Below are positions 17,642 through 64,000 of a stretch of 64,000 nucleotides of DNA, piece after piece (the first letter of the stretch is position 1; each line of letters begins with the position of its first letter). Source of the stretch: Acidobacteriota bacterium (GTDB taxonomy: Bacteria; Acidobacteriota; Aminicenantia; UBA2199); NCBI GenBank assembly GCA_025456205.1, contig JALOLA010000005.1:5971-69970 (forward strand). The letters are read 5' to 3'. Under the pieces are notes generated by a model. That model was not told the DNA's origin, ran no database searches, and was given only the letters and a program-made list of their open reading frames with translations. Both the position numbers and the translations under genes were made by a program.

Positions 17642-17671
17642 CTGACGCCTTCGATCCGGGAGGAAGCCTGC

Positions 17672-23664: not shown

Positions 23665-26048
<2,384 letters not shown>

Positions 26049-41846: not shown

Positions 41847-41852
41847 AACGAG

Positions 41853-41932: not shown

Positions 41933-42110
41933 AAGCGTTGGTGGCCGAACTGTAGCTCTAACGAGCAAAATCGTAGTGTTAGTAACAGCAATTTATCGAG
42001 ACAGTAAAAGATTGACCTCTTGCCGTTTCTCAGCACTTATCGGGCATCCCACATGGAGTGGCCCAGACTCTTTTTCGTGCCCCTCTCTCCCCGTCCGGTT
42101 TTTTTTTGAG

Positions 42111-43406: not shown

Positions 43407-43455
43407 TCTGAACGGCAACGTCGCCAGGGGCCTTCAGGGTGTCCCTGACACTACT

Positions 43456-43619
43456 ATCTCGCCCAAGTTCATCGCCTTGGCTTTACGACCACTACCACTA
43501 TCACTACCACTGAGGCCTGTCAGCGCTCCTGCTGCTACTGCCACTGTAACTGACACCAATAGCTCGTCCATATTCATTGCCTTGGCTTTACAACCACTAC
43601 CACTATCACTACCACTGAG
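43456..43619. repeat. Direct repeat pair with 105-bp period, ending in heptamer units (element E)
   Basis: 43468..43514 and 43573..43619 are 47-nt copies with 2 mismatches (ttcatYgccttggctttacRaccactaccactatcactaccactgag). Weaker similarity extends about 12 nt upstream of each. Confidence 0.85.
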
Positions 43620-43637
43620 AATTCGGTTATTTCCTTC

Positions 43638-44833: not shown

Positions 44834-44904
44834 ATGTTCTCACTCCCCTGGAGCGGGTTTTCGGGCGCATGCTGATTATAGGCGGGGCGAAAAATAATTG
44901 CAAA

Positions 44905-47439: not shown

Positions 47440-47451
47440 GGCCGCGGCGCT

Positions 47452-47751
47452 TTATTTTTCAAGGCGGGCGAAGACGGCTTCGGGACGCTTGATGGCCTCG
47501 GCGACGCTCACCTCGACCTTCTTCAGGGCGGCGAAGCGCTCGCTTCCCTGCACGGCGATGTCGGCGGCGAGGATGACCGCCCCGGCTTCGCGGATCTCCC
47601 TGGCGCTGAGTGCGTTCTCGATGCCCATGGCGCCCTGGGTCTCCACGCGGATGCTGTGCCCGAGTTTTTTCGCGGTCTTTTCCAGCTGCTCGGCCGCCAT
47701 GTAGGTGTGGGCGATGCCGGTGGGGCAGGCGGTCACGGCGACGATCTTCAT
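47452..47751 (-). CDS. PTS fructose-family EIIB
   Basis: Internal ATG 47751. MKIVAVTACPTGIAHTYMAAEQLEK carries the phospho-Cys motif. Confidence 0.85.
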   Translation of the reverse strand: MKIVAVTACPTGIAHTYMAAEQLEKTAKKLGHSIRVETQGAMGIENALSAREIREAGAVILAADIAVQGSERFAALKKVEVSVAEAIKRPEAVFARLEK

Positions 47752-47752
47752 G

Positions 47753-48784
47753 TCATTCTCCCGGGCCGGGCGCCCCGGTCCACTTGCGCAGGACGTTGGC
47801 CAGCAGCGCCACCAGCAGCGTGCCGGCGGCGATGGCCGCGACATAGGCCAGGCGGTTGTCCACCACCGGGATGACGATGGGCCCGCCGTGGGGGGCGTGG
47901 CCGCCGACCCCGCCCAGCATGGCCATCACCGCCGCCAGCATCGATCCCAGCATGATGGTGGGGATGGTGCGCACGGGCTCGGCGGCGGCGAAGGGGATGG
48001 CCCCCTCGGTGATGCCGATCATGCCCATGGCCAGGCTGGCGTAGCCCGCTTCGCGCTCCTGCTGCGTCCACAGCCGGCGCCCGAGCAGCGTGGCCAGGCC
48101 CATGCCCAGCGGCGGCACGCAGATGGCGGCGGCGCAGGCGCCCATGGGCGCGAAGTTGCCCTCCTTGATCATGGCGGCGCTGAAGAAGAAGGCCACCTTG
48201 TTCACCGGCCCGCCCATGTCGAAGGCGATCATGGCGCCCAGCACCGCCGCCAGCAGCACGCGGTTGCCGGTGCCCATCACCTGCAGCCAGGCCGACATCG
48301 AGGTCATCAGGTCGCGGATCGGCACGCCGATGAACTGGAACATGACGAAGCCCACGACCAGCGAGGCGATGACGGGGATGACCAGGATGGGCATCACCGG
48401 CTTGAAGTAGATGGGCACCTTCACCTTCTTGATCAGCATCACCACGGCGCCGGCCAGCAGCCCGGCGGCCAGGCCGCCGAGAAAGCCGGCGCCGATCTGG
48501 TGGGCGATGGCTCCGCCCACGAAGCCCGGCACCAGCGCCGGGCGGTCGGCCATGCCGAAGGCGATGTAGCCGGCCAGCACCGGCACCAGCAGCGAGAAGG
48601 CGGCGCTGCCGATGTCCATGAGCATTTTCAGGAACGGCGAGCCGGAAAAATCGGGCCCGCCCGGGCCCATCGGGGCGAAGGCGATGGCCACGGCGATCAG
48701 GATGCCGCCGCAGGCCACGAAGGGGATGGCGTAGGAGACGCCCGATAGCAGGTACTGCCTGACCTTGAACAGGTGCTGTTTCAT
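47753..48784 (-). CDS. PTS fructose-family EIIC
   Basis: 343 aa polytopic protein with FDMGGPVNK and the GITEGAIPFA motif. Confidence 0.9.
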   Translation of the reverse strand: MKQHLFKVRQYLLSGVSYAIPFVACGGILIAVAIAFAPMGPGGPDFSGSPFLKMLMDIGSAAFSLLVPVLAGYIAFGMADRPALVPGFVGGAIAHQIGAGFLGGLAAGLLAGAVVMLIKKVKVPIYFKPVMPILVIPVIASLVVGFVMFQFIGVPIRDLMTSMSAWLQVMGTGNRVLLAAVLGAMIAFDMGGPVNKVAFFFSAAMIKEGNFAPMGACAAAICVPPLGMGLATLLGRRLWTQQEREAGYASLAMGMIGITEGAIPFAAAEPVRTIPTIMLGSMLAAVMAMLGGVGGHAPHGGPIVIPVVDNRLAYVAAIAAGTLLVALLANVLRKWTGAPGPGE

Positions 48785-48800
48785 CGACGGCCTTCCTCGG

Positions 48801-51800: not shown

Positions 51801-52148
51801 CTCGCGGCCGTCCAGGAAGAACGTGGCATGGACCAACCCGCGGGCGCTCATTACGGTTTTGAGGCGCAGCGGCGTCCCCGCCACCCTGGCGGCGGCGAAG
51901 ACCGCGGGCGCCTGGAAGTTGGCGCGCAGGCGGACATTCGCGGCCTTGAGTGCGCGCCCGGGCTTGTACACTTCCCAGCGCTGGCCGTCGAGCGACTGCT
52001 GCCAATCCAGCAGGCGGGCATCGATGGCCTTTTCCAGGGCCGCCAGCTTCTCGCGCGCCGTGTCGGCAGCGAGTCGCGGCGCCATGAGGCACAGGAATAT
52101 CGCCATGAAGACAACTGTTTTTTTCAACGCGGAGAAATGCTTGCCCAT
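48801..52148 (-). CDS. GH38 alpha-mannosidase with an N-terminal signal-peptide-like segment
   Basis: 1115 aa. GH38 catalytic opening LVGNAHIDIAWLWRMAET and WVEPDCNLISGES. N-terminus MGKHFSALKKTVVFMAIFLCLMAPRLAAD. AGGAG lies upstream of ATG 52148. Confidence 0.9.
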   Translation of the reverse strand: MGKHFSALKKTVVFMAIFLCLMAPRLAADTAREKLAALEKAIDARLLDWQQSLDGQRWEVYKPGRALKAANVRLRANFQAPAVFAAARVAGTPLRLKTVMSARGLVHATFFLDGRELEGAASVRGGTATLHGESGTRVELASDVLLAEKADGAAHVLEIAVENRGFVPERTAYWPERRRGVPVDEGSDFYLNSAELVYPVAGKSLAVLQDWLRAFQFADILLNPELKRYTFTGKPYDIPDRRRVAKDRLEQLNAAFSRAVAALDMPALAAGDGPRLQASLQRSYAAAAPIKNYLKEFKINLVGNAHIDIAWLWRMAETMALTKNTYETVIRNMGEYPELTYAQSQALTYDWIEKKHPDLFRAIGEKVKSGRWEIVGGMWVEPDCNLISGESWARQLLYGKKYFREKFGVDVRIGWNPDSFGYNWNMPQLYKLGGIDSFITQKLWWNDTTVFPHFLFNWRGVDGSTILTYMPPLSYASRLQLSEVAHGVSKYEATTGLKESLILYGLGDHGGGPNREILDRVRGYGRLALAPKFVHTTPSPFLQEKRRQKLDLPLWQDELYLEYHQGTFTTQGAIKKNNRRTEALLAATEKLAAIASLLGDKYPAAELEKSWKSALTLQFHDILPGSSITPVYRDALETYKGVQKDLRLLENRALERISGMVLHEDPLSLPLIVFNTLSWQRDDIATFRHAVPAGFAPRLLDESRQEVPCEIGETGEDGRSEISFIARNVPPLGYRSYSLTTAPPAPAVQKSKGDGVLENAALKLEIDLQSGNFKSIFAKRQNREFVAPGEQANKLWVYEDRPEDWDAWNIGYTGRGWELNKADKVELVSSGPVKTVYRVDKSFLGFSKEREYPTEDFPSSFFTQTITLYHDLDRVDIRTQADWWEDHLSLKACFPVAVRADKAFYEIPFAAIGRTTRFETLWEKARYEVPALRWADLSDEQGGLALLNDGKYGHDIHDGVMKLSLLRSPTWPDPTADRGRHEFTYSLYPHAGAWHESQVVRRGQELNQPLLARVLERRPPGNRSLPASHSFFSADGSGVILDAIKLAEDGKGFLFRLYEANGKAETATLHFFRTPARAVATDLLEKEGSPLELKDGRLELSFRPFEIRSVKVRFE

Positions 52149-52221
52149 GATTCACTCCTTTGCCCATGGGGACGGGCCGGGACGTTGTGGCCAGCCTGTA
52201 TTTTATTGGGAATGCCCGCGA

Positions 52222-52250
52222 TTTACAACCCCCGCGAAATATAGTATAAT
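52222..52250 (+). promoter_or_regulatory. Near-consensus sigma-70-type promoter for typA
   Basis: TTTACA (52222..52227), 17 nt, TATAAT (52245..52250). The roughly 90-nt leader has no recognisable SD before ATG 52349. Confidence 0.5.
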
Positions 52251-52348
52251 GACGGCGTAACGGAGCTGCCCGTCCTGATATCTGATCCAGTCGTCGGAAC
52301 CGGAAAGAGTGATCCCTTATTGGAAACATACAGGCCTCGGCAATCCCC

Positions 52349-54166
52349 ATGAAAAAATTTAAAAATATCGCCATCATCGCCCATGTCGACCACGGCAAGA
52401 CCACGCTGATCGACGCCGTGCTCAAGCAGGCCGGCGTGTTCCGCGACAACCAGAACATCGCCGAGCGCGTGATGGATTCCAACGACCTGGAGCGCGAGCG
52501 CGGCATCACCATCTTTTCCAAGAACGCCGCCTTTCAATACCAGGGCTACAAGATCAACATCGTCGACACGCCGGGCCACGCCGATTTCGGCGGCGAGGTG
52601 CAGCGCATCATGAAGATGGTCGACTCGGTGCTGCTGCTGGTCGACGCCTTCGAGGGGCCCATGCCGCAGACCAAGTACGTGCTGAAGAAGTCGCTGGAGC
52701 AGGGGCTGCGCCCGATCGTGGTCATCAACAAGATCGACCGCCCCAACGCCCGCCCCGACGAGGTGCTGAACGGCATCTTCGACCTGTTCGTCGAGTTGGG
52801 CGCCGACGACAAGCAGCTCGACTTCCCGGTGCTCTACGCCTCGGCCAAGGAAGGGGTGGCCCACTACGAGATGGGCGACAAGAACCGCGGCCTGAAGCCC
52901 CTGTTCGACACCATCCTGCGCCACGTGCCCGAGCCCGAGGGCGATCGCGTCAACCCCTTCCAGTTCATGGCCTCGGCCATCAGCTACGACAATTATCTCG
53001 GCAAGATCGGCACCGGCCGCATCCACAACGGCACCGTCACCCAGGGCGAAGAGGTGCTGCTGCTGAAGCGCAACGGCGACCGCAAGGCCTACAAGGTCAC
53101 GCGCATCTTTACTTACGACGGCATCAGCCGCGTCAGCGTGCCGGAAGCCGTCGCCGGCGACATCGTCTCGCTGGCCGGGCTCGAGGACATCGACCTGGGC
53201 GAGACGGTGGCCGACATCGACCAGCCGCTGCTGCTGCCGGCCATGGACATCGACGAGCCCACCCTGGCCATGACCTTCGCCGTCAACGATTCGCCCTTTG
53301 CGGGCCAGGAGGGCCGCTTCGTCACCTCGACGCAGCTGCACGACCGCCTGCGCCGCGAGATCCTCAACAACGCCAGCCTGCGCCTGGAGGACACCGCCTC
53401 CAAGAAGGCCTTCCTGCTCAAGGGCCGCGGCACCCTGCAGCTCTCCATCCTGATGGAGAACATGCGCCGCGAGGGCTACGAGTTCCAGGTCTCCCGCCCC
53501 GAGGTGATCACCAAGCTGGTCAACGGCCAGCGCTGCGAGCCCATGGAGCTGGCCGTCATCGACGTCGCCGACGAGTACGCCGGGGTGGTCATCGAGATGC
53601 TGGGCCAGCGCAAGGGCGAGCTGCGCCACCTGGTGCCCGGCTCCGACGGCTACACGCGCCTGGAGTTCCGCATCCCGGCCCGCGGCCTGATCGGCGTCAA
53701 CAACGACTTCATGACCTCCACCCGCGGCACGGGCATCCTCAACCACTCCTTCATGGGCTACGAGCCCTTCAAGGGCGAGATGAACCGCAAGACCAAGGGG
53801 GTGCTGGTGGTGCTCGAGCCCGGCGTTTCCGTGGCCTACGGCCTGTTCGGCCTGCAGGAGCGCGGCAGCCTGTTCATCGGCGCCGGGGTGCCGGTCTACA
53901 CCGGCATGATCGTCGGCGAGCACAGCAAGGACAACGACCTGGTGGTCAACGTCTGTCGCGGCAAGAAGCTGACCAACATGCGCGCCGCCGGCTCCGACGA
54001 CGCCGTGCGCCTGACGCCGCCGCGGCAGTTCTCCCTGGAGCAGGCGCTGGACTACATCGAGGACGACGAGCTGCTCGAAGTCACACCGAAGAACGTGCGC
54101 ATGCGCAAGAAGAAGCTCGACGCCAACGCCCGCAAGCAGGACGAGAAGCTGAAAAAAGCGGGCTGA
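52349..54166 (+). CDS. typA: Translational GTPase TypA/BipA
   Basis: 605 aa. [27 protein letters not shown] and NKIDR, with EF-G-like domains. Confidence 0.95.
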
Positions 54167-54167
54167 C

Positions 54168-54200
54168 GCACGGACAGGTCATTTTTGTTCTTGTCCGTGC
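54168..54200 (+). terminator. Hairpin immediately after typA (no U-tract)
   Basis: GCACGGACA (54168..54176) pairs with TGTCCGTGC (54192..54200). The loop is 15 nt. No T-run follows, so intrinsic-terminator status is uncertain. Confidence 0.35.
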
Positions 54201-54240
54201 CCGTCCGTGTTGGTCTGATCTTTCCTCTCTTTCCCTCCCC

Positions 54241-54269
54241 TTGACCGCCCACCGCGCCCGGGCTATCAT
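54241..54269 (+). promoter_or_regulatory. Sigma-70-type promoter placing the TSS at ATG 54277 (leaderless candidate)
   Basis: TTGACC (54241..54246), 17 nt, TATCAT (54264..54269). ATG 54277 is 7 nt downstream. No SD. Confidence 0.4.
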
Positions 54270-54276
54270 GGCGCCG

Positions 54277-54909
54277 ATGAATGAACCCTGCCCCCTTTGC
54301 CGCGATCCGGCGGCTTTTTTCAGCACGGCCAGGAAGAGGGATTACCATCTTTGCGGCCGTTGCGGCGCCGTTTTCATGGCGCCGCGGCATCACCTTTCAG
54401 CGGAGGCCGAGAAAAAGAGGTACGAGGCGCACCGCAACGACGTCGACGATCCCCGCTACCAGGCGTTCGTGCGGCCGCTGGTGAACCTCGTGCTGGAACA
54501 GTGCCGCCCGCAGCAGCAGGGCCTGGATTTCGGCTGCGGCACCGGCCCGGTCGTTTCCAGGCTGCTGGCGGAGCGGGATTACCGTCTCGCGCAGTACGAT
54601 CCGTTCTTCCGCGACCGCCCGCAGCTCCTGGAGCGGGCCTACGATTATATCGTCTGCTGCGAAGTGATCGAGCACTTCCGGGATCCGGCCCGGGAATTCA
54701 GGCTGCTGCGCTCGCTGCTGGAACGGGGCGGCAGGCTGTTCTGCCAGACCGAGCTCTATGCGCCGGGGAGCGAGCTCGCGGCGTGGCCGTATGCGAACGA
54801 CACCACCCACGTCATTTTCTACCAGGAGCGGACCCTGGAATGGATCCGCGATCATTTCGCTTTTACCGCGCTTGCCGTCGCCGGCCGCCTGGCGGTGTTC
54901 ACGGCCTGA
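54277..54909 (+). CDS. Class I SAM-dependent methyltransferase with an N-terminal CxxC...CxxC zinc ribbon
   Basis: MNEPCPLCRD...HLCGRCGAVF, then the SAM motif I GLDFGCGTGPV. ATG 54268 is an alternative start. Confidence 0.75.
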   Translation: MNEPCPLCRDPAAFFSTARKRDYHLCGRCGAVFMAPRHHLSAEAEKKRYEAHRNDVDDPRYQAFVRPLVNLVLEQCRPQQQGLDFGCGTGPVVSRLLAERDYRLAQYDPFFRDRPQLLERAYDYIVCCEVIEHFRDPAREFRLLRSLLERGGRLFCQTELYAPGSELAAWPYANDTTHVIFYQERTLEWIRDHFAFTALAVAGRLAVFTA

Positions 54910-54924
54910 TGCCCGGCGAAATTC

Positions 54925-55098
54925 GTGACGCGTGACGCGTGACGCGTGACGCGGAAGAACGGGACTCGGCGTAGGGCGTAGGGCGTAAGACGTAAGGTGA
55001 AATTTCTCTTCACCCGTCTACCGTAAACCGTCAACCGTCAACCGATTCCGATTATTTCATATTCTCTTACTTCTTCCCTACGCCCTACGCCCCACGCC
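54925..55098. repeat. Heptamer repeat element F (three unit families; nested inverted arms)
   Basis: 54925..54952 is (gtgacgc)x4. 54968..55002 is ggcgtag ggcgtag ggcgtaa gacgtaa ggtgaaa. 55014..55048 is ccgtcta ccgtaaa ccgtcaa ccgtcaa ccgattc, containing the core on the reverse strand (ggaatcggt). 55078..55098 is ctacgcc ctacgcc ccacgcc and pairs with the ggcgtag arm. Sits between the convergent methyltransferase and symporter genes. Confidence 0.85.
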
Positions 55099-55126
55099 GA
55101 TTTCCATTCACCCTTGCTTCAACGCT

Positions 55127-56554
55127 TCAGCTCCTTTTGCCTAACATGCTGGCCAGCGGATTCACGGCCAGCGAGACCAGCATGCCGATGGTGCCGGCCT
55201 CGGGGGTGGGGCTGCCCGTGAAATACAGGGTCATGCAGACGCCCAGGCCCAGGACCGAAGAGGAGACAGCGCCCAGCTTGTTCACCCTTGGGCTCAGGAG
55301 GCCCCAGACGAACGGCCCCAGGAAAACCGAGCCGATGGCGCCCCAGGAGATGGCCAGGATGGAGACGATGGTGGCCGGGCGGAAATATGCGAAGATCACC
55401 GACAGCACGATAAAGAAGGCGCTCAGGAAGCGCATCATGCGCGTCAGGCTGCGGTCCGATATCTTGGGGTTGATGAAGCCGGCGTAAAGGTCCTTGGCCA
55501 GGGCCGAGCTCGAGATCAGCACCAGCGCCGCCAGCGTGGACATGGAGGCCGAGAGGATCAGCAGCAGGATGAACACCGACAGGGAACCGGGGATCACGCG
55601 GATCAGCATCTCCGGCACCAGGCTGTCGAACACCGGCTTGCCGCCGGCAAAAGCGGCCGGGGCGTTCTCGGGGGTGAGGAACAGGCGGGTCAGGCTGCCG
55701 GAAAAATAGGCGACGCTGAGAAAGAAAACGGCGAACGCCGTGGAAATCCACATGCCCAGGCGGATGGCCTTCTTATCCTTCACGGCGTAGAACTTCTGCA
55801 CCAGCTGCGGCATGGCGAAGGGGGCGACCGAGGTCAGGAACACCAGGCAGAACAGGGGCCAGATCCCGGGCGGGCCGACCGCCGCCGTAAGCTGCGGTTC
55901 GATGGCGGCCAGCTTCGCCGTGGCCGCGGCCAGGCCGCCGGCCTTGCCCAGGACGCCGAAGATCACCACGCCGCTGCCGAAGATCATCAGCGCGCTGAAC
56001 AACACGTCGATCGCGCTCATGGAATTGTAGCCGCCCAGGATCATGTAGACGGCCGTGAACAAGCCCATGAAAACCAGGGCCTGCCAGTATTCGGTGTTGA
56101 AGTTCAGCTTGAACAGGTAGGAGAGGCCGATGAACACGGCGGCGGAATAGGGGATGAAGAAGACGAATATGGACGCCGAGGAGAATATCTTGAGGAACTT
56201 GCTGCGATAGCGCTTCTCGAAAAATTCGGCCATGGTCGCCACCTGGTACTCCTGCGACATCTTCTTGATGCGGGCGCCCAGCAGCCACCAGACGGCCAGC
56301 ACTCCGAGAAGGCTGTTGCCGGCGGCGATCCACAGCCCCGAATAGCCGAACTGCCAGCCGACCTTGCCGGCGAAGCCGATGAAGACCACGGCCGAAAAAT
56401 AGGCGGCGCCGTAGGTGAATGCCGTCATCCAGGGGCCGACGTTGCCGCCGCCCAGGAAGAATTCGTTGAAGGTGGTCGTCTTTTTTCCCCGCAGGATGCC
56501 GATCACCACGATCATCAGCACGTAAGCCGAGATCACCGATATCTTCAGCAGCAT
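55127..56554 (-). CDS. Sodium:solute symporter (SSS family)
   Basis: Internal ATG 56554 after AGGAGG. About 13 TM helices. N-terminal FFLGGGNVGPWMTAFTYGAAYFSA is typical of SSS. Confidence 0.85.
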   Translation of the reverse strand: MLLKISVISAYVLMIVVIGILRGKKTTTFNEFFLGGGNVGPWMTAFTYGAAYFSAVVFIGFAGKVGWQFGYSGLWIAAGNSLLGVLAVWWLLGARIKKMSQEYQVATMAEFFEKRYRSKFLKIFSSASIFVFFIPYSAAVFIGLSYLFKLNFNTEYWQALVFMGLFTAVYMILGGYNSMSAIDVLFSALMIFGSGVVIFGVLGKAGGLAAATAKLAAIEPQLTAAVGPPGIWPLFCLVFLTSVAPFAMPQLVQKFYAVKDKKAIRLGMWISTAFAVFFLSVAYFSGSLTRLFLTPENAPAAFAGGKPVFDSLVPEMLIRVIPGSLSVFILLLILSASMSTLAALVLISSSALAKDLYAGFINPKISDRSLTRMMRFLSAFFIVLSVIFAYFRPATIVSILAISWGAIGSVFLGPFVWGLLSPRVNKLGAVSSSVLGLGVCMTLYFTGSPTPEAGTIGMLVSLAVNPLASMLGKRS

Positions 56555-56567
56555 GATTCCTCCTGTT

Positions 56568-57884
56568 TTAAAAGCGGAAAAACAATTCGAACTGCACCCA
56601 GTGGAAGGCGTCGGCGCCGGCAATGTAGAAGTTCCCCGGGCGGAAATATTCCCATATCAGGCGGCCGGCCAGGTTCGGGGAAACGTTATAGACGGCCTTG
56701 GCGATGAGCAGGTCGCCGCGGCTTTTGCCGCTGCCGCTGAGCAGCGCGGCTGGGGCCGTGCGCTCCGGCGCGGCCAGGCGGTGCCAGGCCAGGTGCAGCT
56801 TCACTCTCTCCGCCGGCTCGAACACCAGGGCGCCATAGAGGGAGGTGAAGTTGGTCCAGTCGGCCACTCGCGTCTCCCTGGCCTGCAGGTAGATCAGCGA
56901 GTCGCTCCATTTCGGCCAGCGGCTGAAGGCGGCGTCCCAGCCTTCGAACCGTTCCGTTTCCGCATCGTCACCGCTGAGAAAGATGCCGCCCAGGGTCAGC
57001 TGCGCCGGCACGGGAAAGCGCCGGCCCGGCTTGTGGTCGAGGTGGAAATAGCCGCCCAGGCCGCGGCGCTTCCCGGCGCCGAGCGTCCCGAGCTGGAGGG
57101 CGCCCTCGGCGGTCAGCGCCAGCCGGTCGCTGAAGGGATGGACGACGCGCCCGCCGGCCACCTGCAGGGCCCCCTTGGGCATTGCGGCGAAGGCGAAGGC
57201 GTCCTTGCGGAACAGATAGGCATCGAGTGCGGTTTTTTTCAAGCGGCCGCTGAAGTAGAAGCCGAAGCCCTGCTCTTCCTGCTCGACCATGGCCTGCTCC
57301 CTGTCGTTGACGACGGGCAGCAGCGTGTCGCGGCGCCGCTGGCGCACGAAAAAGAAGGTCAGGTTGCTCTTGTTCTTGAACGCGCGGTCCAGCCGCAGCC
57401 CGTTGAAATAGCCCGAGCGCGAGCCGTCGAGCGGGCCGCCGTCCATGACCAGGAAGCCCTCGCCCAGCATCATGTCGAAGCGGCCCAGGGTGAGGGACAA
57501 GCCCGGTTGCCGCGGGCTCTTCCATTGGACGTACAGCTGGTCGAAAAAAACCTCGTGAATATTGAAGTCGGTCTTCAGCCGCGGGTCGAGCTTGGGCGCC
57601 AGGTAAACGCGGTTCTCGTTGGTCAGGCGCAGGTGGAGCCGCCACGCCCCGCTCGGCGTCCATTCGGCGCCGAGGCTGGTGCGCAGGCGCAGGAAGGCGC
57701 TGGAGTCGCCGGCGGCATCGTCGAGGCTCAGGGTGTTGTCCCAGCTCTCCTGGCGCACGCGCTCCCAGAAGTAAATAGAAAAAAGCGGGTCATTCTTGGC
57801 CTCCGCGGCCTGGGCGGCCAGGGGCGGTCCGAGGCAGGAGCAGAAAAGGATGGCCAGGAAACCGGCGATGGATCGATGGGCCAT
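56568..57884 (-). CDS. Outer-membrane porin, alginate-export-like family
   Basis: Internal ATG 57884 after GGAGG. Signal peptide MAHRSIAGFLAILFCSCLGPPLAAQA, beta-strand periodicity, and a C-terminal ...FELFFRF. The family call is tentative. Confidence 0.6.
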   Translation of the reverse strand: MAHRSIAGFLAILFCSCLGPPLAAQAAEAKNDPLFSIYFWERVRQESWDNTLSLDDAAGDSSAFLRLRTSLGAEWTPSGAWRLHLRLTNENRVYLAPKLDPRLKTDFNIHEVFFDQLYVQWKSPRQPGLSLTLGRFDMMLGEGFLVMDGGPLDGSRSGYFNGLRLDRAFKNKSNLTFFFVRQRRRDTLLPVVNDREQAMVEQEEQGFGFYFSGRLKKTALDAYLFRKDAFAFAAMPKGALQVAGGRVVHPFSDRLALTAEGALQLGTLGAGKRRGLGGYFHLDHKPGRRFPVPAQLTLGGIFLSGDDAETERFEGWDAAFSRWPKWSDSLIYLQARETRVADWTNFTSLYGALVFEPAERVKLHLAWHRLAAPERTAPAALLSGSGKSRGDLLIAKAVYNVSPNLAGRLIWEYFRPGNFYIAGADAFHWVQFELFFRF

Positions 57885-57955
57885 GGAACCTCCAGGGGAT
57901 GGTGAATATGAAAAATAACCCAAAATGCGAAAAAATGCAACCGCTGCTTCCGGGG

Positions 57956-57984
57956 TTTACTCGCTGCCGCCAACGGGATACAAT
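57956..57984 (+). promoter_or_regulatory. Sigma-70-type promoter candidate for the 140-aa membrane protein gene
   Basis: TTTACT (57956..57961), 17 nt, TACAAT (57979..57984). The AAGGAG SD precedes ATG 58008. Confidence 0.45.
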
Positions 57985-58007
57985 GGCGCCGCGCAAGGAG
58001 TCGGAAA

Positions 58008-58430
58008 ATGCTCTGGAAGCTGATCACCCTTTTCGCCCTGGGCGTCGCCGAGCTCTGGGCCGCCGCCCCCGCCGGCGTGGCCATGGGCCTGGACCCCGTC
58101 CTGGTCTGCCTGGTCGCCGCCGCCGGCGCCGTCAGCGGCGGATCGGTCGTCGTCCTGCTCGGGGAGCGGGTGAAGGCCTGGCTGCAGAAGCGGAAAAAAC
58201 GCGAGCAGCTGGAGGCGAAGCGCGGGCTGCTCTGGCGCGTCTGGCGGCGCTACGGCGTCATCGGCTGGGGGCTGCTGGCGCCGCTGCTGGTCGGCTCGCC
58301 GCTGGGGGCCGCCTTCGGCCTGGTCCTGGGCGCGCCGCCAAGACGGCTCCTGCCCTGGCTGGCCGCGGGGTCGGTCCTGTGGAGCGTGGTTTTCTCGGTA
58401 CTGGCGGCGGTGGGGAAACAACTGCTATAG
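58008..58430 (+). CDS. Small membrane protein (small multidrug-export-like, tentative)
   Basis: 140 aa with four hydrophobic helices and a basic loop KRKKREQLEAKR. The family call is from memory only. Confidence 0.5.
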   Translation: MLWKLITLFALGVAELWAAAPAGVAMGLDPVLVCLVAAAGAVSGGSVVVLLGERVKAWLQKRKKREQLEAKRGLLWRVWRRYGVIGWGLLAPLLVGSPLGAAFGLVLGAPPRRLLPWLAAGSVLWSVVFSVLAAVGKQLL

Positions 58431-58977
58431 ATGTTAGACGTTAGACGTCAGTAGTCAGCAAGAAATTATAGGAATCGGTTTACGGTTGACGGTTGACGGT
58501 TTACGGGAAGAGATGAAGCAATAGTAAGACTAAAATTCCAAGCACCAAGCACCAAATTCCTAAAAAAGTGTTAGTGATAGTGATAGTGGTTGTGAAGAAA
58601 GGAACTCAGGGCAAAGGCATTCTCCTGGCGGGCATGCAGATCCGAATATCCATTTCCAAAACGAAGGCCCTTCCAATGCCTTTTCTGGGTCAATGGCATT
58701 TCTTACTTTAAGCTTTTTATTTTAAACTTAAACTTTTGCATTGGAAAGTCATCTTCCCTTAGCCCGCCGCCTTACGCTAAGTGCTTTTTCTTCACTTTTG
58801 CCTTTTTACTTTTGCCTTGTCTTCCTATAATCTACTGACTACTGACTACTGACTACTTCTTTTTCTTCTAACGTCGAACCCAAAACATGGGCATGGATTC
58901 TTGGCTTTGCTACCGTCCAACGTCTGGTTGCGGTTTTTCTTTTTCTTGCTAACGTCTAACGTCTATCGTCTAACGTC
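58430..58977. repeat. Heptamer repeat element G (large composite copy, about 550 bp, low GC)
   Basis: Left end 58430..58464 is gatgtta gacgtta gacgtca gtagtca gcaagaa. Core AGGAATCGGT is at 58470..58479. 58476..58510 is cggttta cggttga cggttga cggttta cgggaag. Further unit blocks lie at 58536..58560, 58568..58596, 58793..58825 and 58832..58859 (ctactga x3). Right end 58943..58977 is ttcttgc taacgtc taacgtc tatcgtc taacgtc. The ends are near-identical to element A. Confidence 0.85.
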
Positions 58978-58982
58978 TTCTT

Positions 58983-59681
58983 CTAATCGTATAACTCGTA
59001 GGGATGGCTCATGCCGAGAACCGTTCCGTCCATGGCGGCGACGACGATGTAGCCGCTGGGAAAGATCGTCATGCCGTCGGGGCTGGTGCCCACGGTGCGC
59101 CACTCGACGATGCCCCGGTCGGGGGGCACGTTCACGGCGATGGGGAAGTTGGCAAAATTGATCTGGTAGATCTTGAGGTTCTGCGTGACGTTGAAGCAGC
59201 GGAAATGGATGCTCATGGTCGAGCCGCGGCGATAGCGCTCGCCGGCGCGCGGCATATAGACCTCGATCTTGCTGGCGACCACGTGGAAGTTGGCGTTGCT
59301 CTCGTCGGCTGCGCGGCCGTTCTCGGAGACCACGCGCACCTTGTAGTCCCGGCCCAGCGCCAAGCTGGCGGGCACGTTCCAGGTCCAGCTCCATTTGCCG
59401 GCCACCGGTCCCGCGGGCGTGACCGCCGGATAGCTGCGCACGACCACGCCGTCCTTCTTGATCTGGACGGTCGGGCGGCCGATGTCGCCCATCTTCGTCC
59501 ATTGGATCGTCTGCTGGGCGCCGCGCAGCACCTGCTCGCCGCCATTGGGCGTGGCGACGGTGATGAGGACCCGCGGCGGGGCCAGCAGGGTCGTGTTTGG
59601 CTGCAGCTGCGGCGGGTCCTGGGCCCAGGCGCAAAGGAATGCCGCCAGCAGTATCGCGAAAAGGAAGGCGTGCTTTTTCAT
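58983..59681 (-). CDS. Secreted hypothetical protein, 232 aa (Ig-like beta-sandwich repeats likely)
   Basis: Internal ATG 59681 after GGAGG. Signal peptide MKKHAFLFAILLAAFLCAWA. Contains GGEQVLRGAQQTIQWTKMG...YKVRVVS. Confidence 0.55.
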   Translation of the reverse strand: MKKHAFLFAILLAAFLCAWAQDPPQLQPNTTLLAPPRVLITVATPNGGEQVLRGAQQTIQWTKMGDIGRPTVQIKKDGVVVRSYPAVTPAGPVAGKWSWTWNVPASLALGRDYKVRVVSENGRAADESNANFHVVASKIEVYMPRAGERYRRGSTMSIHFRCFNVTQNLKIYQINFANFPIAVNVPPDRGIVEWRTVGTSPDGMTIFPSGYIVVAAMDGTVLGMSHPYELYD

Positions 59682-59753
59682 GTTGACCTCCATCTTGTCT
59701 GCAGGATGAATACGATAACCGGGGGTTTTATCTCAGCAGATAAGTGAAAGTTT

Positions 59754-59918
59754 CAGTGACAGTGCCAGTGTCAGCAGGAAATGAAAGGAATCGGTTTACG
59801 GTGGACGGTTTACGGTGTACGGTAAGAACTTCTTACTTTTACCTTTTTACTTTTGCCTTTGTCTTTCTCTTCCCCTGTGCCTGATGCCAAGGATATTCCC
59901 ACCGTCCACCGTTGTCCA
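59754..59918. repeat. Heptamer repeat element H
   Basis: 59754..59777 is cagtgacagtgccagtgtcagcag. Core AGGAATCGGT is at 59786..59795. 59792..59826 is cggttta cggtgga cggttta cggtgta cggtaag. 59832..59870 is a tttgcct-type block. 59898..59918 is cccaccg tccaccg ttgtcca, the reverse complement of the cggt units. Confidence 0.8.
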
Positions 59919-59928
59919 AGTCTCAGAA

Positions 59929-61083
59929 TTACTTCAGCGCCTCGACTCCCTTGAACTCCCGCGTGGGCAGGAAGCTGCGCAGGATATGGCGGTCGTCCTC
60001 CGTCTCTTCGTTCCTGGCGATGCGCGTCAGCAGCTCGCCGAGTCCCGGCCCGAGCATGAAGCCCTGGCCGCACATGCCGACGGCGTGGATGTAATTGCTG
60101 ACGGCGGCGTCGCGGCCGACGATGGGAAAGCCGTCGGGGGTCATGGGGTACTGGCCGCGCCACGAGCGGCGCACGCGCAGCGAGGCCAGCCGCGGGTAGA
60201 GCTGGACCATGCGCCTGGCCACCTGCGGGAAAAAGAGCGATGTCGATTCGTTGAGCACCCCGAGGATGGGCGGGTCGGGCGTGATGCAGAAGACCACCTG
60301 GCCCTCATGGTTCTGGTAGAAGTAATAGTTGGCCGAGCCGGGCTCGGGGCGGATGTCGACCACCATGGGGCCGAAAAAGCGCTGCACCGGCTCGGTGATC
60401 GCCCCTTCGTGGTTGTCGGGCTCGACCGGGACGTCCAGATGGGCCAGGCGGGCGATGGCGCGGGCGCTGTTGCCGGCGGCGTTGATCACCTGGCCGCAGG
60501 CGTACTCGCCCTTGTCGGTGACGACGGACGCGATCTTGCCGGCGGCGAGGCGCAGGGCGCTCGCCTTTTCGCTGAAACGGTACTCGGCGCCGGCTTCGAT
60601 GCTCTTGAAGAAGAAGGCGTTGACCGCCAGCAGCGGCGAGGCGCTGCCGTCCTCCGGGGAATACGTGGAGCCGCGCAGGCCGGACATGGAAATGCCCGGC
60701 ACCAGCTCGTTGTATTCGCCGGGAGACACCCAGCGGATGTTCAGGCCGAAGCCATGCTGCACCTTCATCAGGTCCTTCAGCTTACTTTCCATCGCCGCGG
60801 AGTAGGCGGGGTAGCTGTAGCCGTTGCTCAGCCAGCCGATCTCGTCTCCCTCCTTCTCCTTCCAGCCGGCGAAGATCTCGATGCTGCGCTGGCAGACGCG
60901 GATCTTGCCGAAGTCGGAGTGGGTGGCGCGGATGCCGCCGATGGCCTTCTTGTTGCTCAGCTGGCCGGGAGAGGCCATTTCGTCGAGCACCAGCACCGAC
61001 AGGCCGGCGCGGGCCAGGGCGAGGGCGGCGGGCACGCCCACCGAGCCGGCGCCGATGACGACGATATCGTACGCCTTGGCCAT
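59929..61083 (-). CDS. FAD-dependent oxidoreductase, DAO family (SoxB / HcnC / OoxB / proline-dehydrogenase beta-like)
   Basis: MAKAYDIVVIGAGSVGVPAALALARAGLSVLVLD dinucleotide fold. C-terminal HAVGMCGQGFMLGPGLG. ATG 61089 (ATGA overlap) is an alternative start. Confidence 0.85.
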   Translation of the reverse strand: MAKAYDIVVIGAGSVGVPAALALARAGLSVLVLDEMASPGQLSNKKAIGGIRATHSDFGKIRVCQRSIEIFAGWKEKEGDEIGWLSNGYSYPAYSAAMESKLKDLMKVQHGFGLNIRWVSPGEYNELVPGISMSGLRGSTYSPEDGSASPLLAVNAFFFKSIEAGAEYRFSEKASALRLAAGKIASVVTDKGEYACGQVINAAGNSARAIARLAHLDVPVEPDNHEGAITEPVQRFFGPMVVDIRPEPGSANYYFYQNHEGQVVFCITPDPPILGVLNESTSLFFPQVARRMVQLYPRLASLRVRRSWRGQYPMTPDGFPIVGRDAAVSNYIHAVGMCGQGFMLGPGLGELLTRIARNEETEDDRHILRSFLPTREFKGVEALK

Positions 61084-61085
61084 GG

Positions 61086-63173
61086 TCATTCTCCCTGGCC
61101 TTCGCCGCCGGAGCCGGCCAGGGTGCCGAGCGGCACCTCGACGAACAGCGGCCGCCGGGTGCCGGGAACGATGCGCCCCGGGTCGATCCCTTCCTGGCGG
61201 AAGATGGAGCGGATGAGGGTGTCGCACGACTTGCCGCCGCAGGCGCCCATGCCGGCGCGGGTGACGGCCTTGATCTGGTTGATGTCGGTGATGCCCGAGC
61301 GGATCAGGCGGCGCACCTCGGCGGCCGACACCCGCTCGCACAGGCAGGCCATGGCGGCGTGGTCGCCGTCGGCGGCGGCCACGGTCGTGGGCAGGGGTTG
61401 CGAGTCGGCGGCGGCCTGGACGCGGAAGGCCACGACGCGCTTGGCCAGGGCGCGCGGCACGCGCAGGCGCACCAGGCGGGTGAGGTTCTCGCGGTTCTGC
61501 TGAACGGCCGCCACCTCGAACTCGCCCAGCGGGTTGCCGTCGATGTCGACGGCCTGCACCTTGCCGCCCACGGCCAGCGGCACGTGCGACATCTCGTAGG
61601 GGACGGTGACGATGGGGTTCTCCCGGTCGCGGCGGTAGTCCACCAGGGTGATGGCGAGGCCCGGGCAGATGAGCAGGCACTTGGCGCAGCCGATGCAGCG
61701 GCCCTTGTAGCGCGGCAGGCCCAGCAGCGGGTCGTTCTCTAGCTGGATGGAGTTGGTGGGGCAGATGGTCGAGCAGGGGTTGCAGGGAATCTCCTGCAGG
61801 CAGTGGATCACCGGCATCACCCCCTCCTCGCCCTCGGGAAAGACCTGCGGCTCGACCTTGCCGGGGTGGGACTTGAGCAGCTCGGCCTTGTCCTTCCAGG
61901 CGGCGGGGACCTCGCCGGCAGTGGCGCCCAGCGCCCGGGCGACGGCCAGCCCGGCGATGCGGCCGTTGAACATGGCCGAGGAGGCCTCGGCGATCTCGGC
62001 GGCGTCGCCGGCGGCGAACACGGGCAGCCCGGCCGCTTCAGCCTGGGCGGTGAACTCGGCGATGGGGTCGAGGCCGACGGCCACCAGCAGCGTGTCGCAG
62101 GCGAAGGTCCGCTCGGTGCCGGCGAGCGGGCGGAAGCGCTCGTCGACCTTGGCGATGGTCACCGACTCGACGCGCTCGCTGCCGTTGGCCGACAGCACGG
62201 TGTGCGAGGTGTAGACGGGCACGCCCAGGCGCTTGAGCTTGTCGGCATGAACCTTGTAGCCGCCGCAGGCGGGGAGCGCCTCGGCCAGGCCCACCACGGT
62301 GATGCCGGCCTGGATGGCGTGATAGCCGGCGATCAGGCCGACGTTGCCGCCGCCGACGATGAACAGGCGGCTCGACGGCCGCACCAGGTCGCGGTTGACC
62401 AGGGTCTGGAAGGCGCCGGCGCCGTAGACGCCGATCAGGTGGTTGCCGGGGAAGACCAGCGACTTCTCGCGGGCGCCGGCGGCATTCAGCACCACCTTGG
62501 GCACGACCAGCCGGTAGGCCCCCTGGCGCAGCACGCCCACCTTGCGGTCGGAATAGACGTAGAGCACGGTGCTGTCGGGCCAGACCGTCACGCGCGGGTC
62601 GGCGGCCACCGCCTCGGCCAGTTTGCGGCCGATGCGGATGCCGCGCGTGCCGGCCTGCGAATCCTCGACCGAGCCGAAGAACTTGTGCGTCTGCAGCACC
62701 AGCTTGCCGCCGGGCTCGTGCTTGTCGTCGACCAGCAGGGTGGCGACACCGAGGCGCCCGAGCTCGACCGCGGCCGAGAGCCCGGCCGGTCCGGCGCCGA
62801 TGATCAGCACGTCGGTATGGAGCTCGGGTATCTCGCGGATCTCCGGGGCCGCACCGATTTCCGGCAGCGCCGGGAGCTCGTCGGCGGCGTTGACCTTCAT
62901 CCCCGCCGCCAGCGGGGTCATGCAGGACTTCACCGGCCGGTGGTCGGCGATCACCAGGCACTTGGAGCACTGGCCGTTGGCGCAGAAGATGCCCTGGGAG
63001 GCGTGGTCATGGGCGTTGCGCCCGAAGGCGTCGATGCCGGCGGCGATCAGGGCCGAGGAGAGGGCTTCCCCCCTTTTCCCGGAGAGGGGCTGGCCGTTCC
63101 AGTAGAATTTGACCGTTTCCCCGGCTTCCACCGGGAGCACCGGGTGCTCGTGAATGCGCCGATCTTCGCTCAT
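61086..63173 (-). CDS. Fused [2Fe-2S] / FAD-NAD(P) pyridine-nucleotide-disulfide-oxidoreductase / 4Fe-4S ferredoxin / BFD-like [2Fe-2S] protein (HcnA+HcnB / OoxA / PDH alpha-like)
   Basis: Internal ATG 63173 after GGGAGGA. N-terminal CANGQCSKC...C module. TDVLIIGAGPAGLSAA and LFIVGGGNVGLIAG Rossmann pairs. CNPCSTICP...CIGCAKCLLICP ferredoxin motifs. C-terminal CLCERV...MGACGGKSC BFD-like motif. Confidence 0.8.
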   Translation of the reverse strand: MSEDRRIHEHPVLPVEAGETVKFYWNGQPLSGKRGEALSSALIAAGIDAFGRNAHDHASQGIFCANGQCSKCLVIADHRPVKSCMTPLAAGMKVNAADELPALPEIGAAPEIREIPELHTDVLIIGAGPAGLSAAVELGRLGVATLLVDDKHEPGGKLVLQTHKFFGSVEDSQAGTRGIRIGRKLAEAVAADPRVTVWPDSTVLYVYSDRKVGVLRQGAYRLVVPKVVLNAAGAREKSLVFPGNHLIGVYGAGAFQTLVNRDLVRPSSRLFIVGGGNVGLIAGYHAIQAGITVVGLAEALPACGGYKVHADKLKRLGVPVYTSHTVLSANGSERVESVTIAKVDERFRPLAGTERTFACDTLLVAVGLDPIAEFTAQAEAAGLPVFAAGDAAEIAEASSAMFNGRIAGLAVARALGATAGEVPAAWKDKAELLKSHPGKVEPQVFPEGEEGVMPVIHCLQEIPCNPCSTICPTNSIQLENDPLLGLPRYKGRCIGCAKCLLICPGLAITLVDYRRDRENPIVTVPYEMSHVPLAVGGKVQAVDIDGNPLGEFEVAAVQQNRENLTRLVRLRVPRALAKRVVAFRVQAAADSQPLPTTVAAADGDHAAMACLCERVSAAEVRRLIRSGITDINQIKAVTRAGMGACGGKSCDTLIRSIFRQEGIDPGRIVPGTRRPLFVEVPLGTLAGSGGEGQGE

Positions 63174-63244
63174 GGCGACTGTCCTCCCGGCCCGGCATTT
63201 CTCCATGCCCGACCACAGTATCCATATAGCATATCTTGGCCATT

Positions 63245-63346
63245 TGAAAAAAGAAAATATTAGAAAATTATTAAAAATAATACAAAAATATAATAATTAT
63301 CAATAATTATGGAAATTGTAAAAATAATGTGCTAATAATTAAACAA
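63245..63346. promoter_or_regulatory. Extremely AT-rich divergent control region with reiterated AATAATTA motifs
   Basis: About 100 bp, almost entirely A/T, in a GC-rich genome. AATAATTAT at 63292..63300 and 63302..63310; AATAATTA at 63334..63341. Sits between the flavoenzyme operon and the Lrp/AsnC gene. Confidence 0.6.
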
Positions 63347-64000
63347 ATGAATGTTGGAAAATTTGTCGACGATACCGATCTTGCCCTTTTAGAGGAGTTG
63401 AGCCTCAACGGCCGCGAGAGCCTGACGAAACTGGCGGAGAAGCTGGGGCTCTCCAAGCAGCGCCTGGGCTACCGCTTGCGCGGCCTGCAGCGCCGCGGCG
63501 TGCTCTCCGGGTTTTTCGCCATCCCCAACATATTCCGCCTGGGCTTCGACCACTTCCGCATCTTCGTCAAGTTCCAGCACCTGAACGAAGCGCGGGAACA
63601 GGAGCTGCTCGACCACCTGGTCACCCGCTCCGAGGTCTCCTGGCTGACGCAGCTCGACGGCGACTTCGACCTGGAGTTCGTGATCTGGGCCCAGGGCGTG
63701 CCGGCGTTCGAGTCGGCTTATGACGATATCCTGGGGCAGTTCGGCTCGCTGTTCCAGGAGCGCTACTTCTCCCTGGCCACGCGCATCGAGTTTTTCCCCT
63801 GGCGCTTCCTGGCCGCGGGCGACATGGGCGCGCCGATCGTGCTCGAGAACCAGGGTGGAGCGCTGGCCATCGACCCCATCGACCGCCGGCTGCTGGCCGA
63901 GCTCAGCCGCAACGGCCGCCTGTCGCTGGCCGCCCTGGCCTCCCGCTGCCGCGTCCTGCCGGCGACCGCCGCGCTGCGCCTGCGCGCCCTGCGCCGCAGC
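63347..64000 (+). CDS. Lrp/AsnC-family transcriptional regulator with a second HTH module; 3' end beyond the window
   Basis: Not in the ORF track because it has no stop. My translation from ATG 63347 is MNVGKFVDDTDLALLEELSLNGRESLTKLAEKLGLSKQRLGYRLRGLQRRGVL... A second DRRLLAELSRNGRLSLAALASRC HTH follows near the edge. Confidence 0.75.
   Translation, partial: MNVGKFVDDTDLALLEELSLNGRESLTKLAEKLGLSKQRLGYRLRGLQRRGVLSGFFAIPNIFRLGFDHFRIFVKFQHLNEAREQELLDHLVTRSEVSWLTQLDGDFDLEFVIWAQGVPAFESAYDDILGQFGSLFQERYFSLATRIEFFPWRFLAAGDMGAPIVLENQGGALAIDPIDRRLLAELSRNGRLSLAALASRCRVLPATAALRLRALRRS

Follow-up and report, generated by a model that had tools for sequence, protein, structure and literature searches.

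What fills the gap between two converging genes at positions 58428 to 58978 of a 64,000-nt stretch of an Acidobacteriota bacterium (GTDB lineage Bacteria; Acidobacteriota; Aminicenantia; UBA2199; GenBank assembly GCA_025456205.1, contig JALOLA010000005.1, forward-strand positions 5,971 to 69,970; the whole stretch is hereafter called the window), and how does it relate to repeats described elsewhere? The block, which we call element H, is built from tandem 7-nt units arranged as inverted arms, and a sequence-only reading of the window had listed eight such intergenic loci, H among them. The account that we favor, and to which we give about an even chance, is that these loci belong to a clade-wide class of mosaic repeats resembling the STRR repeats of cyanobacteria, resized by slippage, reshuffled by recombination, and acting as two-way hairpins at the 3' ends of genes. 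We observed that modules are shared across loci and species, that arrays change in 7-nt steps, that modules are duplicated, lost, or swapped, and that the elements lie at 3' ends with a consistent polarity. Complete elements carry their module set once in each orientation, and either strand, or a transcript of it, can fold into a long imperfect hairpin.

The G+C content of the window is approximately 65% and drops, with sharp boundaries, to 41-47% in the gaps between genes. Tandem Repeats Finder, run over the whole window, returned 17 period-7 arrays of 2.3-5 units each at a score of at least 30, and 16 of them lie in the roughly 10% of the window that is intergenic (binomial p=1.5e-15), the sole genic array being at 15758. 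Gene calls for this comparison were made by codon-position GC and checked both against those of an identical Joint Genome Institute (JGI) contig and against Pfam. Exact runs of period 7 numbered eight, versus zero to two for each of the other periods in the range 4-12. There is about one element per 8 kb, and the sequences that we examined hold at least 12 unit families. Low-GC blocks were present at all eight of the loci listed, and period-7 arrays at all but two: the units at 16000-16146 are imperfect, GGCGTAA-type, and below detection by Tandem Repeats Finder, the locus being recovered as a 36-nt inverted repeat, and those at 43456-43619 are hexamers, with arrays at 43488 and 43593 of period 6 (ACCACT). 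The degenerate pattern G-R-C-G-K-W-N, which had been said to fit most units, describes about 10-11 of the 17 arrays; AAAGGCA, CCAAGCA, and CTACTGA fall outside it, and GACGCGT breaks it at position 5. The observation that arrays start 0-15 nt past stop codons was correct, and in H and in element A (2934-3072) the TAG stop lies inside the first TTAGACG unit. So was the recurrence of the same units at distant loci: 58794-58818 matches 41923-41899 at 100% in inverted orientation, and 58567-58593 matches 43616-43590 at 93%, likewise inverted. A generic direct-repeat search of the whole window was swamped by coding-sequence noise.

Folding of each locus was compared with dinucleotide shuffles on both strands. 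Five elements, A (folded over 2934-3075), B (15262-15440), C (15995-16150), G (54920-55112), and H (58426-58982), form long hairpins, with z-scores from -4.7 to -7.2 on both strands, and in a related contig (L126) a single element forms a 480-nt hairpin with z of -9.6. The reverse-complement partner blocks that had been described as usual were found at these five window loci and, over 12 nt only, at element I; none exists at 41853-41932 (element D) or 43456-43619 (element E). The description "inverted arms" therefore fits five of the eight loci, and D, E, and I are half or rearranged elements. Array pairs that are reverse complements of each other are more frequent within one gap (5 of 32) than between different gaps (12 of 244; permutation p=0.03), a modest excess, because identical unit types recur at many loci. 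As had been predicted from the periodicity of the arms, slipped pairing is available: A, B, and H each have alternative registers 7 nt apart.

Element H is a nested hairpin of 550 nt (z of -4.5 and -6.0 on the two strands) that fills the convergent junction between a 140-aa gene on the plus strand and a 236-aa gene on the minus strand, with its outer arms at 58429-58465 and 58942-58978. Its interior is a mosaic whose modules recur in five other loci (L021, L041, L070, L077, and L129). On the plus strand, a conserved module of about 110 nt at 58450-58570 reads AGCAAGAAAT..AGGAATC, (GGTTKAC)4, GGGAAGAGATGAAGCAATAGTAAGACTAAAATT, (CCAAGCA)n; it is followed by an apex module at 58591-58774, nonrepetitive and pyrimidine rich with (ACTTTAA)-like units, for which six copies could be aligned. 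The inner right part (58789-58879, plus strand) consists of a (TGCCTTT)-type array at 58789-58818, (CTACTGA)3.7 at 58832-58857, and the inner end TTCTTTTTCTTCTAACGTCGAAC, and is collinear with positions 3382-3473 of L070 at 93-100% identity.

The sequence-only reading had also singled out AGGAATCGGT as a conserved core at four loci. The match is exact at 2998, 58470, and 59786, and the minus-strand copy at 55041 (CGGAATCGGT) has one mismatch; matches with at most one mismatch number 10 in all, versus 3.2 expected. The core is not a separate part, as alignment of the modules shows AGGAATCGGT to be the first, in-phase unit of the (GGTTKAC)n array, in the register GGGAATC, GGTTTAC, GGTTGAC, ..., GGGAAGA. 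Twelve copies of the 110-nt module from five genomes or contigs align in the form ..AGCAAGAAATGAA-(G/A)GGAATC-(GGTTKAC)3-5-GGGAAGAGAAGAAGCAATAGKAAGACTAAAATTCC-(CCAAGCA/CCAAATT)n, and a profile hidden Markov model (HMM) built on the module found full-length copies only in the Aminicenantes clade among the 1.07 Mb searched. Both the 110-nt and the apex module have invariant positions at the level of primary sequence, and they pair only with inverted counterparts elsewhere in the element. Neither the 12 copies of the one nor the 6 copies of the other yielded a consensus structure or covariation, and with no covarying pairs in either module we rejected the idea that the modules are structured RNAs.

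The family extends well beyond this genome, contrary to the suggestion that it might be genome-specific: the same modules recur elsewhere in Aminicenantes, in no fewer than three further genomes or contigs. Segments of H of 20-110 nt recur at 85-100% identity by BLAST in the five loci named above, and in L070 they stand in the same order as in H. Because the parts of the window that carry elements are not syntenic with L041, L070, or L077, the copies there are dispersed and not orthologues. A scan with the 16-mer GGAATCGGTTKACGGT over one genome per species gave 119 loci, mostly chance matches; five are real, all with heptamer periodicity and extended similarity, namely two in Candidatus Aminicenantes UBA6072, two in UBA2199, and one in a metagenome-assembled genome (MAG) of Saprospiraceae. 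A metagenome scan with a 23-mer gave four matches, of which L122 is clearly family-like, L121 and L123 share the array only, and L124 is probably due to chance. Plasmid and phage records searched by BLAST with H gave no match, and two scans of viral contigs gave none or chance matches only. Outside the clade, the Saprospiraceae MAG (L097, 3300-3400) has GGAATC-(GGTYGAC)n-GGAAGAG directly downstream of a tRNA gene, the unplaced metagenome contigs L121 (578-680) and L123 (1066-1196) have the same leading unit followed by (TKACGGT/TTCACGG)n, with a TAG stop as the starting point in one of the two, and a Gemmatimonadales MAG (L044, 5050-5168) has paired heptamer arrays. As judged from these sequences, the arrays in other phyla may reflect either homology or convergence.

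Orthologous regions were retrieved through homologues of the FAD oxidoreductase (DAO) gene that adjoins element I. Array density varies strongly among them: 2.3 per 10 kb in the window and 2.4 in L126, 3.8-16 at UBA2199 loci, and 6-7.5 at UBA6072 loci, versus none in three related contigs (L125, L128, and L130), 0.7 in the related contig L131, and 0.29 in 114 unrelated control loci. Presence/absence differences between related genomes were found downstream of the DAO gene. L128 has no element there; L126 has its one 480-nt hairpin, with ends (AGACGTT)n/(AACGTCT)n resembling those of A and H; in the window, I and H flank the 236-aa gene; and in UBA2199 (L129) that gene is present in two copies surrounded by three large elements, the element adjoining the 140-aa gene being the orthologue of H. 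The left module of H is identical to this orthologue at 105 of 116 positions (90.5%), which is higher than the 73.4% identity of 4-fold sites (764 sites) in five flanking genes of the window and UBA2199 (p=4e-6). Arrays of the two orthologues differ by whole 7-nt units, and 7-nt indels also separate paralogous arrays; at the convergent SSF/methyltransferase junction, the heptamer hairpins of the window and UBA2199 are unrelated. A 9.8-kb JGI metagenome contig is 99.98% identical to 53952-63745. As to polymorphism within populations, L001 differs from the window by two substitutions, both outside the elements, and L126 is identical to L127. Unit-step slippage, duplication and exchange of modules, and gain, loss, or replacement of whole elements thus act together, and some module sequences stay constant.

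Several observations accompany these regions. The UBA2199 orthologue of H contains, at L129 13560-13860, a higher-order repeat of three tandem composites of about 105 nt, (GTTCGAN)4, AAAAAGAAAA, (AGTAGAC)3, (AAAGGCA)n, that is, a threefold duplication. The 236-aa gene, which encodes a signal-peptide protein and has no Pfam match, occupies 58983-59693 in the window (minus strand), bracketed by I and H; it is missing from the syntenic part of L126 (11067-12010) and is present in UBA2199 as tandem paralogues (L129 11575-12279 and 12779-13477), each bracketed by elements. The repeats may mediate gain and duplication of this gene by recombination. Downstream of the oxidoreductase in L125 (12445-16320), MmeI-type restriction-modification and Mrr-like genes stand in place of the elements, and the region appears to be a variable island. 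L131, which is related and element poor, carries at 12802-13425 a 207-aa gene with a faint Pfam match to Y1_Tnp (IS200/RAYT-type), the only transposase-like gene near the orthologous regions.

The elements favor convergent gene ends and avoid divergent junctions. Within the window, they are present at 5 of the 6 junctions that are convergent, at 3 of the roughly 31 that are tandem, and at none of the 6 that are divergent (convergent versus the rest, p=3e-4); with L126 and L129 added, the counts are 8 of 14, 8 of 47, and 0 of 13 (convergent versus divergent, p=0.0014; convergent versus tandem, p=0.005). Fifteen of 17 elements, including some with unrelated arm units, are rich in purines over their 5' half and in pyrimidines over their 3' half, the exceptions being D and E. 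Because reverse complementation keeps this polarity, transcripts arriving from either side meet a purine-rich arm and then a U/C-rich arm. The stem of B is followed on the plus strand by T7, and that of A on the minus strand by T10. In layout, the elements correspond to an enlarged bidirectional intrinsic terminator. Because the loops of the elements are longer than 8 nt, a consensus terminator scan detects none of them, and it places no short canonical terminators at gene ends. Short hairpins followed by T-runs are not enriched over shuffled sequence (24 versus 17 in 1-20000; 17 versus 15 in 41000-60999); sites resembling sigma-70 promoters are enriched about fourfold in the same intervals (10 versus 2.4 and 9 versus 2.5).

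The sequence-only reading could not place this architecture in any named family, and had suggested a REP/MITE-like element. Hairpins of tandem heptamers were in fact already known, from the STRRs (PMC2670836) and from inverted GGGAATC repeats in Xanthomonas (PMC4692102). The STRRs of filamentous or heterocystous cyanobacteria are tandem heptamers lying between or behind genes that form hairpins, with suspected roles in transcript stability, termination, or translational coupling (PMC2670836). The elements share with them the 7-nt tandem unit, the presence of several unit families per genome, the intergenic location, and inverted arrays that give hairpins near gene ends; they differ in their Acidobacteriota/Aminicenantes host and in their units (TTAGACG, GTTCGAM, GGCGTAR, GGTTKAC, AAAGGCA, CCAAGCA, and others). 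The units of STRR1-3 are CCCCAGT, TTGGTCA, and CAACAGT, and none of the window units matches these. The elements differ also in that their arrays follow one another in a recurring order, linked by conserved nonrepetitive spacers, to make mosaics of 120-700 nt whose modules are 85-100% identical between species; we know of no description of such an ordered mosaic with conserved spacers for STRRs. Pneumococcal BOX elements, which are dispersed, intergenic, and modular, with variable tandem subunits and a stable predicted structure, offer a likeness in modularity, although their subunit is about 45 nt rather than 7 and there is no sequence relation.

Xanthomonas genomes carry about 185 repeats of the GGGAATC type, 70-75 per genome in closely spaced inverted pairs that could form stem-loops; the repeats favor noncoding sequence, are transcribed, are underrepresented between divergent open reading frames (ORFs), vary between related strains, and have no known function (PMC4692102). 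Our elements resemble the GGGAATC/GGGGAYT repeats of Xanthomonas and Nostoc in being intergenic heptamer repeats of variable length that form inverted stem-loop pairs and are rare at divergent ORFs, and the first unit of the 110-nt module, (G/A)GGAATC, recalls the Xanthomonas unit itself. The Xanthomonas repeats, however, consist essentially of one G-rich unit with G3-4 tracts, a preferred copy number of four, and G-quadruplex formation (Rehm et al. 2015, PMC4692102), whereas the elements have many unit families, GG tracts only, nested arms of several families, and conserved spacers. TAACTGA repeats of Beggiatoaceae, Cyanobacteria, and Bacteroidetes are likewise intergenic heptamers, mixed with other heptamers in some Bacteroidetes and in Microcystis, and their patchy distribution across phyla suggests horizontal spread (PMC4679880). 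Most of them are direct repeats placed immediately upstream of start codons, suggesting a translational role (PMC4679880), whereas the elements are at 3' ends, have their arms inverted, and keep out of divergent promoter regions. Geobacter has repeat families in which four to five heptamers stand in tandem (PMC2700814), and in many prokaryotes no long simple repeat is commoner than the heptamer, possibly because of polymerase slippage (Mrazek 2007, cited in PMC4679880).

With BIMEs, REPs, and REPINs, for which terminator, mRNA-stabilizing, and protein-binding roles have been proposed (PMC3116915, PMC3733652), the elements share their extragenic location at gene 3' ends, high copy number, hairpin formation, and a mosaic structure with linker motifs. 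A REP unit, in contrast, is a single imperfect palindrome of 20-40 nt with a GTAG or CGTC tag, mobilized by a RAYT (Y1 transposase) whose gene usually has REPs on either side; here, the arms are heptamer arrays of 16-40 nt with variable registers, and CGTC and GTAG occur inside TAACGTC, GGCGTAG, and CAGTAGT with no fixed terminal tag. No RAYT or transposase was found among the 18 window proteins scanned (64 kb of genome). A, H, and the L126 element are MITE-like in their shared inverted ends and their sizes of 140-550 nt. The elements are of one kind with the named heptamer and REP families and fail the defining features of each. Features that we did not find described are unit families in recurring order with spacers, nested arms reaching 550-700 nt, conservation above the synonymous rate, and strict polarity, and our literature search found no paper connecting Aminicenantes with heptamer repeats.

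On the account that we favor, arrays would arise and change length by slipped-strand mispairing, and copies would spread and be reshuffled by recombination or by some route of transposition. An RNA polymerase leaving either of two convergent genes would transcribe a purine-rich arm and then its pyrimidine/U-rich complement, and the resulting hairpin, with U-rich sequence behind it, would keep transcription from running on into the opposing gene, protect the 3' end of the mRNA, or both. A bidirectional transcript-end hairpin would be the use that the host makes of the elements, or at least an effect that it tolerates, and the half elements D, E, and I would be products of decay or rearrangement. 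Of the proposal that this is a REP/MITE-like terminator or mRNA-stabilizing hairpin, the part concerning a recurrent intergenic family of 3'-end hairpins holds, and the role is plausible in that it fits the junction preference and polarity.

A number of points weigh against this account. We infer the termination or stabilization role from geometry only. The preference for convergent junctions is also expected of a selfish element that survives only where insertion is harmless; its statistics come from 74 junctions in three related contigs, with gene calls partly our own. The polarity counts are not independent, since the copies are homologous. Instead of a use to the host, horizontal exchange or a mobilizing enzyme that recognizes the sequence could explain why conservation exceeds the synonymous rate. 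D (folded over 41848-41935), E (43456-43622), and I (59740-59920) have z-scores between -1 and +1. The loops or interiors of the elements are much larger than those of canonical intrinsic terminators, and stems other than B on the plus strand and A on the minus strand have U-rich tails only, without U-runs. Element I, for its part, is situated in a 5' region and may contain a promoter. Finally, a rho gene (3080-4381, minus strand; Rho_RNA_bind plus ATPase domain) adjoins element A, so factor-dependent termination is available to the cell. Rho-loading (rut) sites in the C/A-rich arrays were considered as a general explanation and rejected, as transcripts from the opposite side are purine rich.

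The main rival, which we regard as unlikely but well short of negligible, is that the elements are selfish nonautonomous DNA of the MITE or REPIN kind, with the heptamer arms of 37-40 nt serving as terminal inverted repeats and the conserved modules as recognition sequences for a transposase encoded elsewhere. A, H, and the L126 element do have near-identical inverted ends of 37-40 nt (AGACGTTAGACGTTAG..CAAGA / TCTTG..CTAACGTCTAACGTCT), copies are dispersed at nonsyntenic loci and present or absent at orthologous sites with sharp clade restriction, the modules are conserved without an RNA structure of their own, and sizes of 120-550 nt are in the MITE range. Yet no target-site duplication flanks A, H, or the L126 element, no clean empty site was found among the orthologous loci, and no transposase gene adjoins any copy, the 18 window proteins scanned being ordinary housekeeping genes. 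Nor was a parent autonomous element found in about 200 kb of Aminicenantes sequence, a limited sample, or in plasmid, phage, and viral collections. Mosaics with different arms also have no single terminal inverted repeat, and a uniform purine-to-pyrimidine polarity across unrelated arms is not required by transposition. Rather more doubtful is a reading in which the arrays are binding sites for a protein that reads heptamers in DNA (for nucleoid organization, or by gyrase/IHF-type binding as at BIMEs) or in RNA (a regulator that binds single strands), with the hairpin secondary; the functional parts would then be the unstructured modules, G/T-rich (GGTTKAC)n followed by C/A-rich (CCAAGCA/CCAAATT)n. 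Conservation of the 110-nt and apex modules in primary sequence without internal pairing suits this reading, as do an H orthologue more conserved than synonymous sites, the recurrence of GGAATCGGT followed by (TKACGGT)n in the Saprospiraceae MAG and two unrelated metagenome contigs, and the protein partners proposed for heptamer repeats of cyanobacteria and Beggiatoaceae (PMC4679880; bioRxiv 10.1101/2022.06.06.494920). No candidate protein was found, however, and at least 12-15 unit families could hardly be bound by one reader; unit number varies freely, and the modules occur in both orientations relative to neighboring genes. An extension of the same thought, that the modules are working parts of a cross-phylum heptamer-reading system in which a protein or enzyme recognizes, and perhaps synthesizes or resizes, the arrays, spread horizontally among Aminicenantes, Saprospiraceae, and others, strikes us as improbable; if true, it would give a mechanism and a function to the STRRs, unexplained since 1990.

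Two further explanations fare worse. It is very unlikely that the elements are structured noncoding RNA (ncRNA) genes or G-quadruplex switches like the Xanthomonas GGGAATC repeats. Strong folding z-scores and the four GG runs of the (GGTTKAC)4 array would be in keeping with one or the other; however, both strands fold equally, there is no Rfam match and no covariation within modules, orientation to genes is not fixed, and a density of about one copy per 8 kb does not resemble that of an RNA gene, while GG tracts without any GGG would limit a quadruplex to two tetrads. The Rfam search of the whole window at gathering threshold gave no matches, that of 58400-59950 (H and I) at E<=1 gave only a chance IRES_Bip match (E=0.99), and a tRNA/tmRNA scan gave none. 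That the arrays are independent microsatellites, produced by local slippage favoring 7-nt units without common descent or function, is the least credible reading of all and is already contradicted by module homology. Unit-step indels are present, to be sure, and heptamers are the commonest class of long simple sequence repeat in many prokaryotes, with slippage proposed as the cause (PMC4679880, PMC4692102). Independent origin nevertheless does not account for long stretches, nonrepetitive spacers included, that are common to loci and species in the same order, for reverse-complement partner arrays placed symmetrically, or for contigs of close relatives that have none.

The remaining elements of the window show how varied the family is. 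The outer arms of element A (2934-3072), 40 nt long and 80% complementary, consist of (AGACGTT)n at 2934-2973 and of (CTAACGT)n at 3033-3072, with AGGAATCGGT between them at 2998-3007; the fold z-scores are -6.7 and -6.1. Element A lies at the convergent junction of a glycosyltransferase gene (plus strand) and rho (minus strand), and H and the L126 element have ends homologous to its own. Element B (15265-15436) lies between convergent MazG (plus) and bifunctional-nuclease-domain (minus) genes. Its arms, (GTTCGAN)4.3 at 15265-15294 and (AACTTCG)4.7 at 15397-15429, the latter followed by the T7 run, are 92% complementary, with z of -5.8 and -6.3, and one arm is 97% identical to L070 3460-3494. 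Element C (16000-16146) is found between tandem minus-strand genes, downstream of an SDR gene; its imperfect GGCGTAA-type arms at 16000-16035 and 16111-16146, 36 nt each, are 72% complementary (z of -4.7 and -4.9). Element G (54924-55109) lies at the convergent methyltransferase/SSF transporter junction and contains (CGTGACG)4.3 and the arms (GGCGTAG)n at 54968-54994 and (CCCTACG)n at 55076-55098, within an inverted repeat of 54957-54997 and 55076-55109 (z of -7.2 and -6.6). These arms enclose a minus-strand module of the core and (TKACGGT)5 at 55010-55050, and the module HMM matches 54972-55061 on the minus strand with E=2e-12.

The half elements are simpler. D (41855-41922, plus strand), at a convergent junction of a ddl-like (D-Ala-D-Ala-ligase-like) and an MFS gene, consists of the direct arrays (TCGAWGT)4 and (AAAGGCA)4.6 with no inverted pairs and a z-score of about 0; 32 nt of it are 100% identical to L070 3387-3418, and it is inverted relative to 58794-58818. 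E (43456-43619, minus strand) comprises two direct repeats of about 45 nt, each with a hexamer array (ACCACT; on the minus strand, AGTGGT/AGTGAT), forms no hairpin (z of about 0), and is inverted relative to 58567-58593. Element I (59743-59912, plus strand) is upstream of the 236-aa gene, in a gap between tandem genes of the minus strand. It runs from (AGTGAC/AGTGCC) at 59743-59774 through the core at 59786-59795, (TKACGGT)4.6 at 59792-59823, and (TTTTACC/TTTTGCC) at 59829-59860 to the short partner ACCGTCCACCGT at 59901-59912; it has no significant hairpin (z of about -0.9), a module HMM match with E=2e-13, and a promoter-like site at 59918-59890 on the minus strand. The genes adjoining the elements are ordinary by Pfam: glycosyltransferase, rho, MazG, nuclease-domain, SDR, D-Ala-D-Ala-ligase-like, MFS, DUF4230, and methyltransferase.

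Other features of the window were recorded in passing. The A/T-rich region 63207-63350, at 31% G+C, has A-tracts with a periodicity of about 10 nt (Tandem Repeats Finder periods 10 and 20). It is situated in the promoter region from which the oxidoreductase operon and a gene for an AsnC-type regulator diverge, resembles bent DNA or a stretch where a regulator binds, and has no relation to the heptamer family. Lon protease is encoded by two full-length paralogues, at 4938-7268 and 23664-26048, both on the minus strand and 18.7 kb apart, that are 76-78% identical in DNA over several hundred bases. CAG runs at 13389-13403 (5 units) and 13503-13542 (about 13 units) lie inside a 588-aa minus-strand gene (12336-14102).

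Tandem heptamers are the most overrepresented long simple repeats in many bacteria, and more than 30 years after the STRRs there is no agreed function or origin for them. The Aminicenantes family extends heptamer repeats to an unrelated, uncultured, high-GC lineage, and its modules are conserved between species above the synonymous rate. Heptamer repeats break short-read assemblies and can mediate gene duplication, for which the 236-aa gene may be an example. Placement at convergent gene ends and a polarity of purines followed by pyrimidines both point to two-way transcript-end hairpins, and the existence of element-rich and element-free sister genomes provides a natural comparison and a clean system in which the function of heptamer repeats can be tested.

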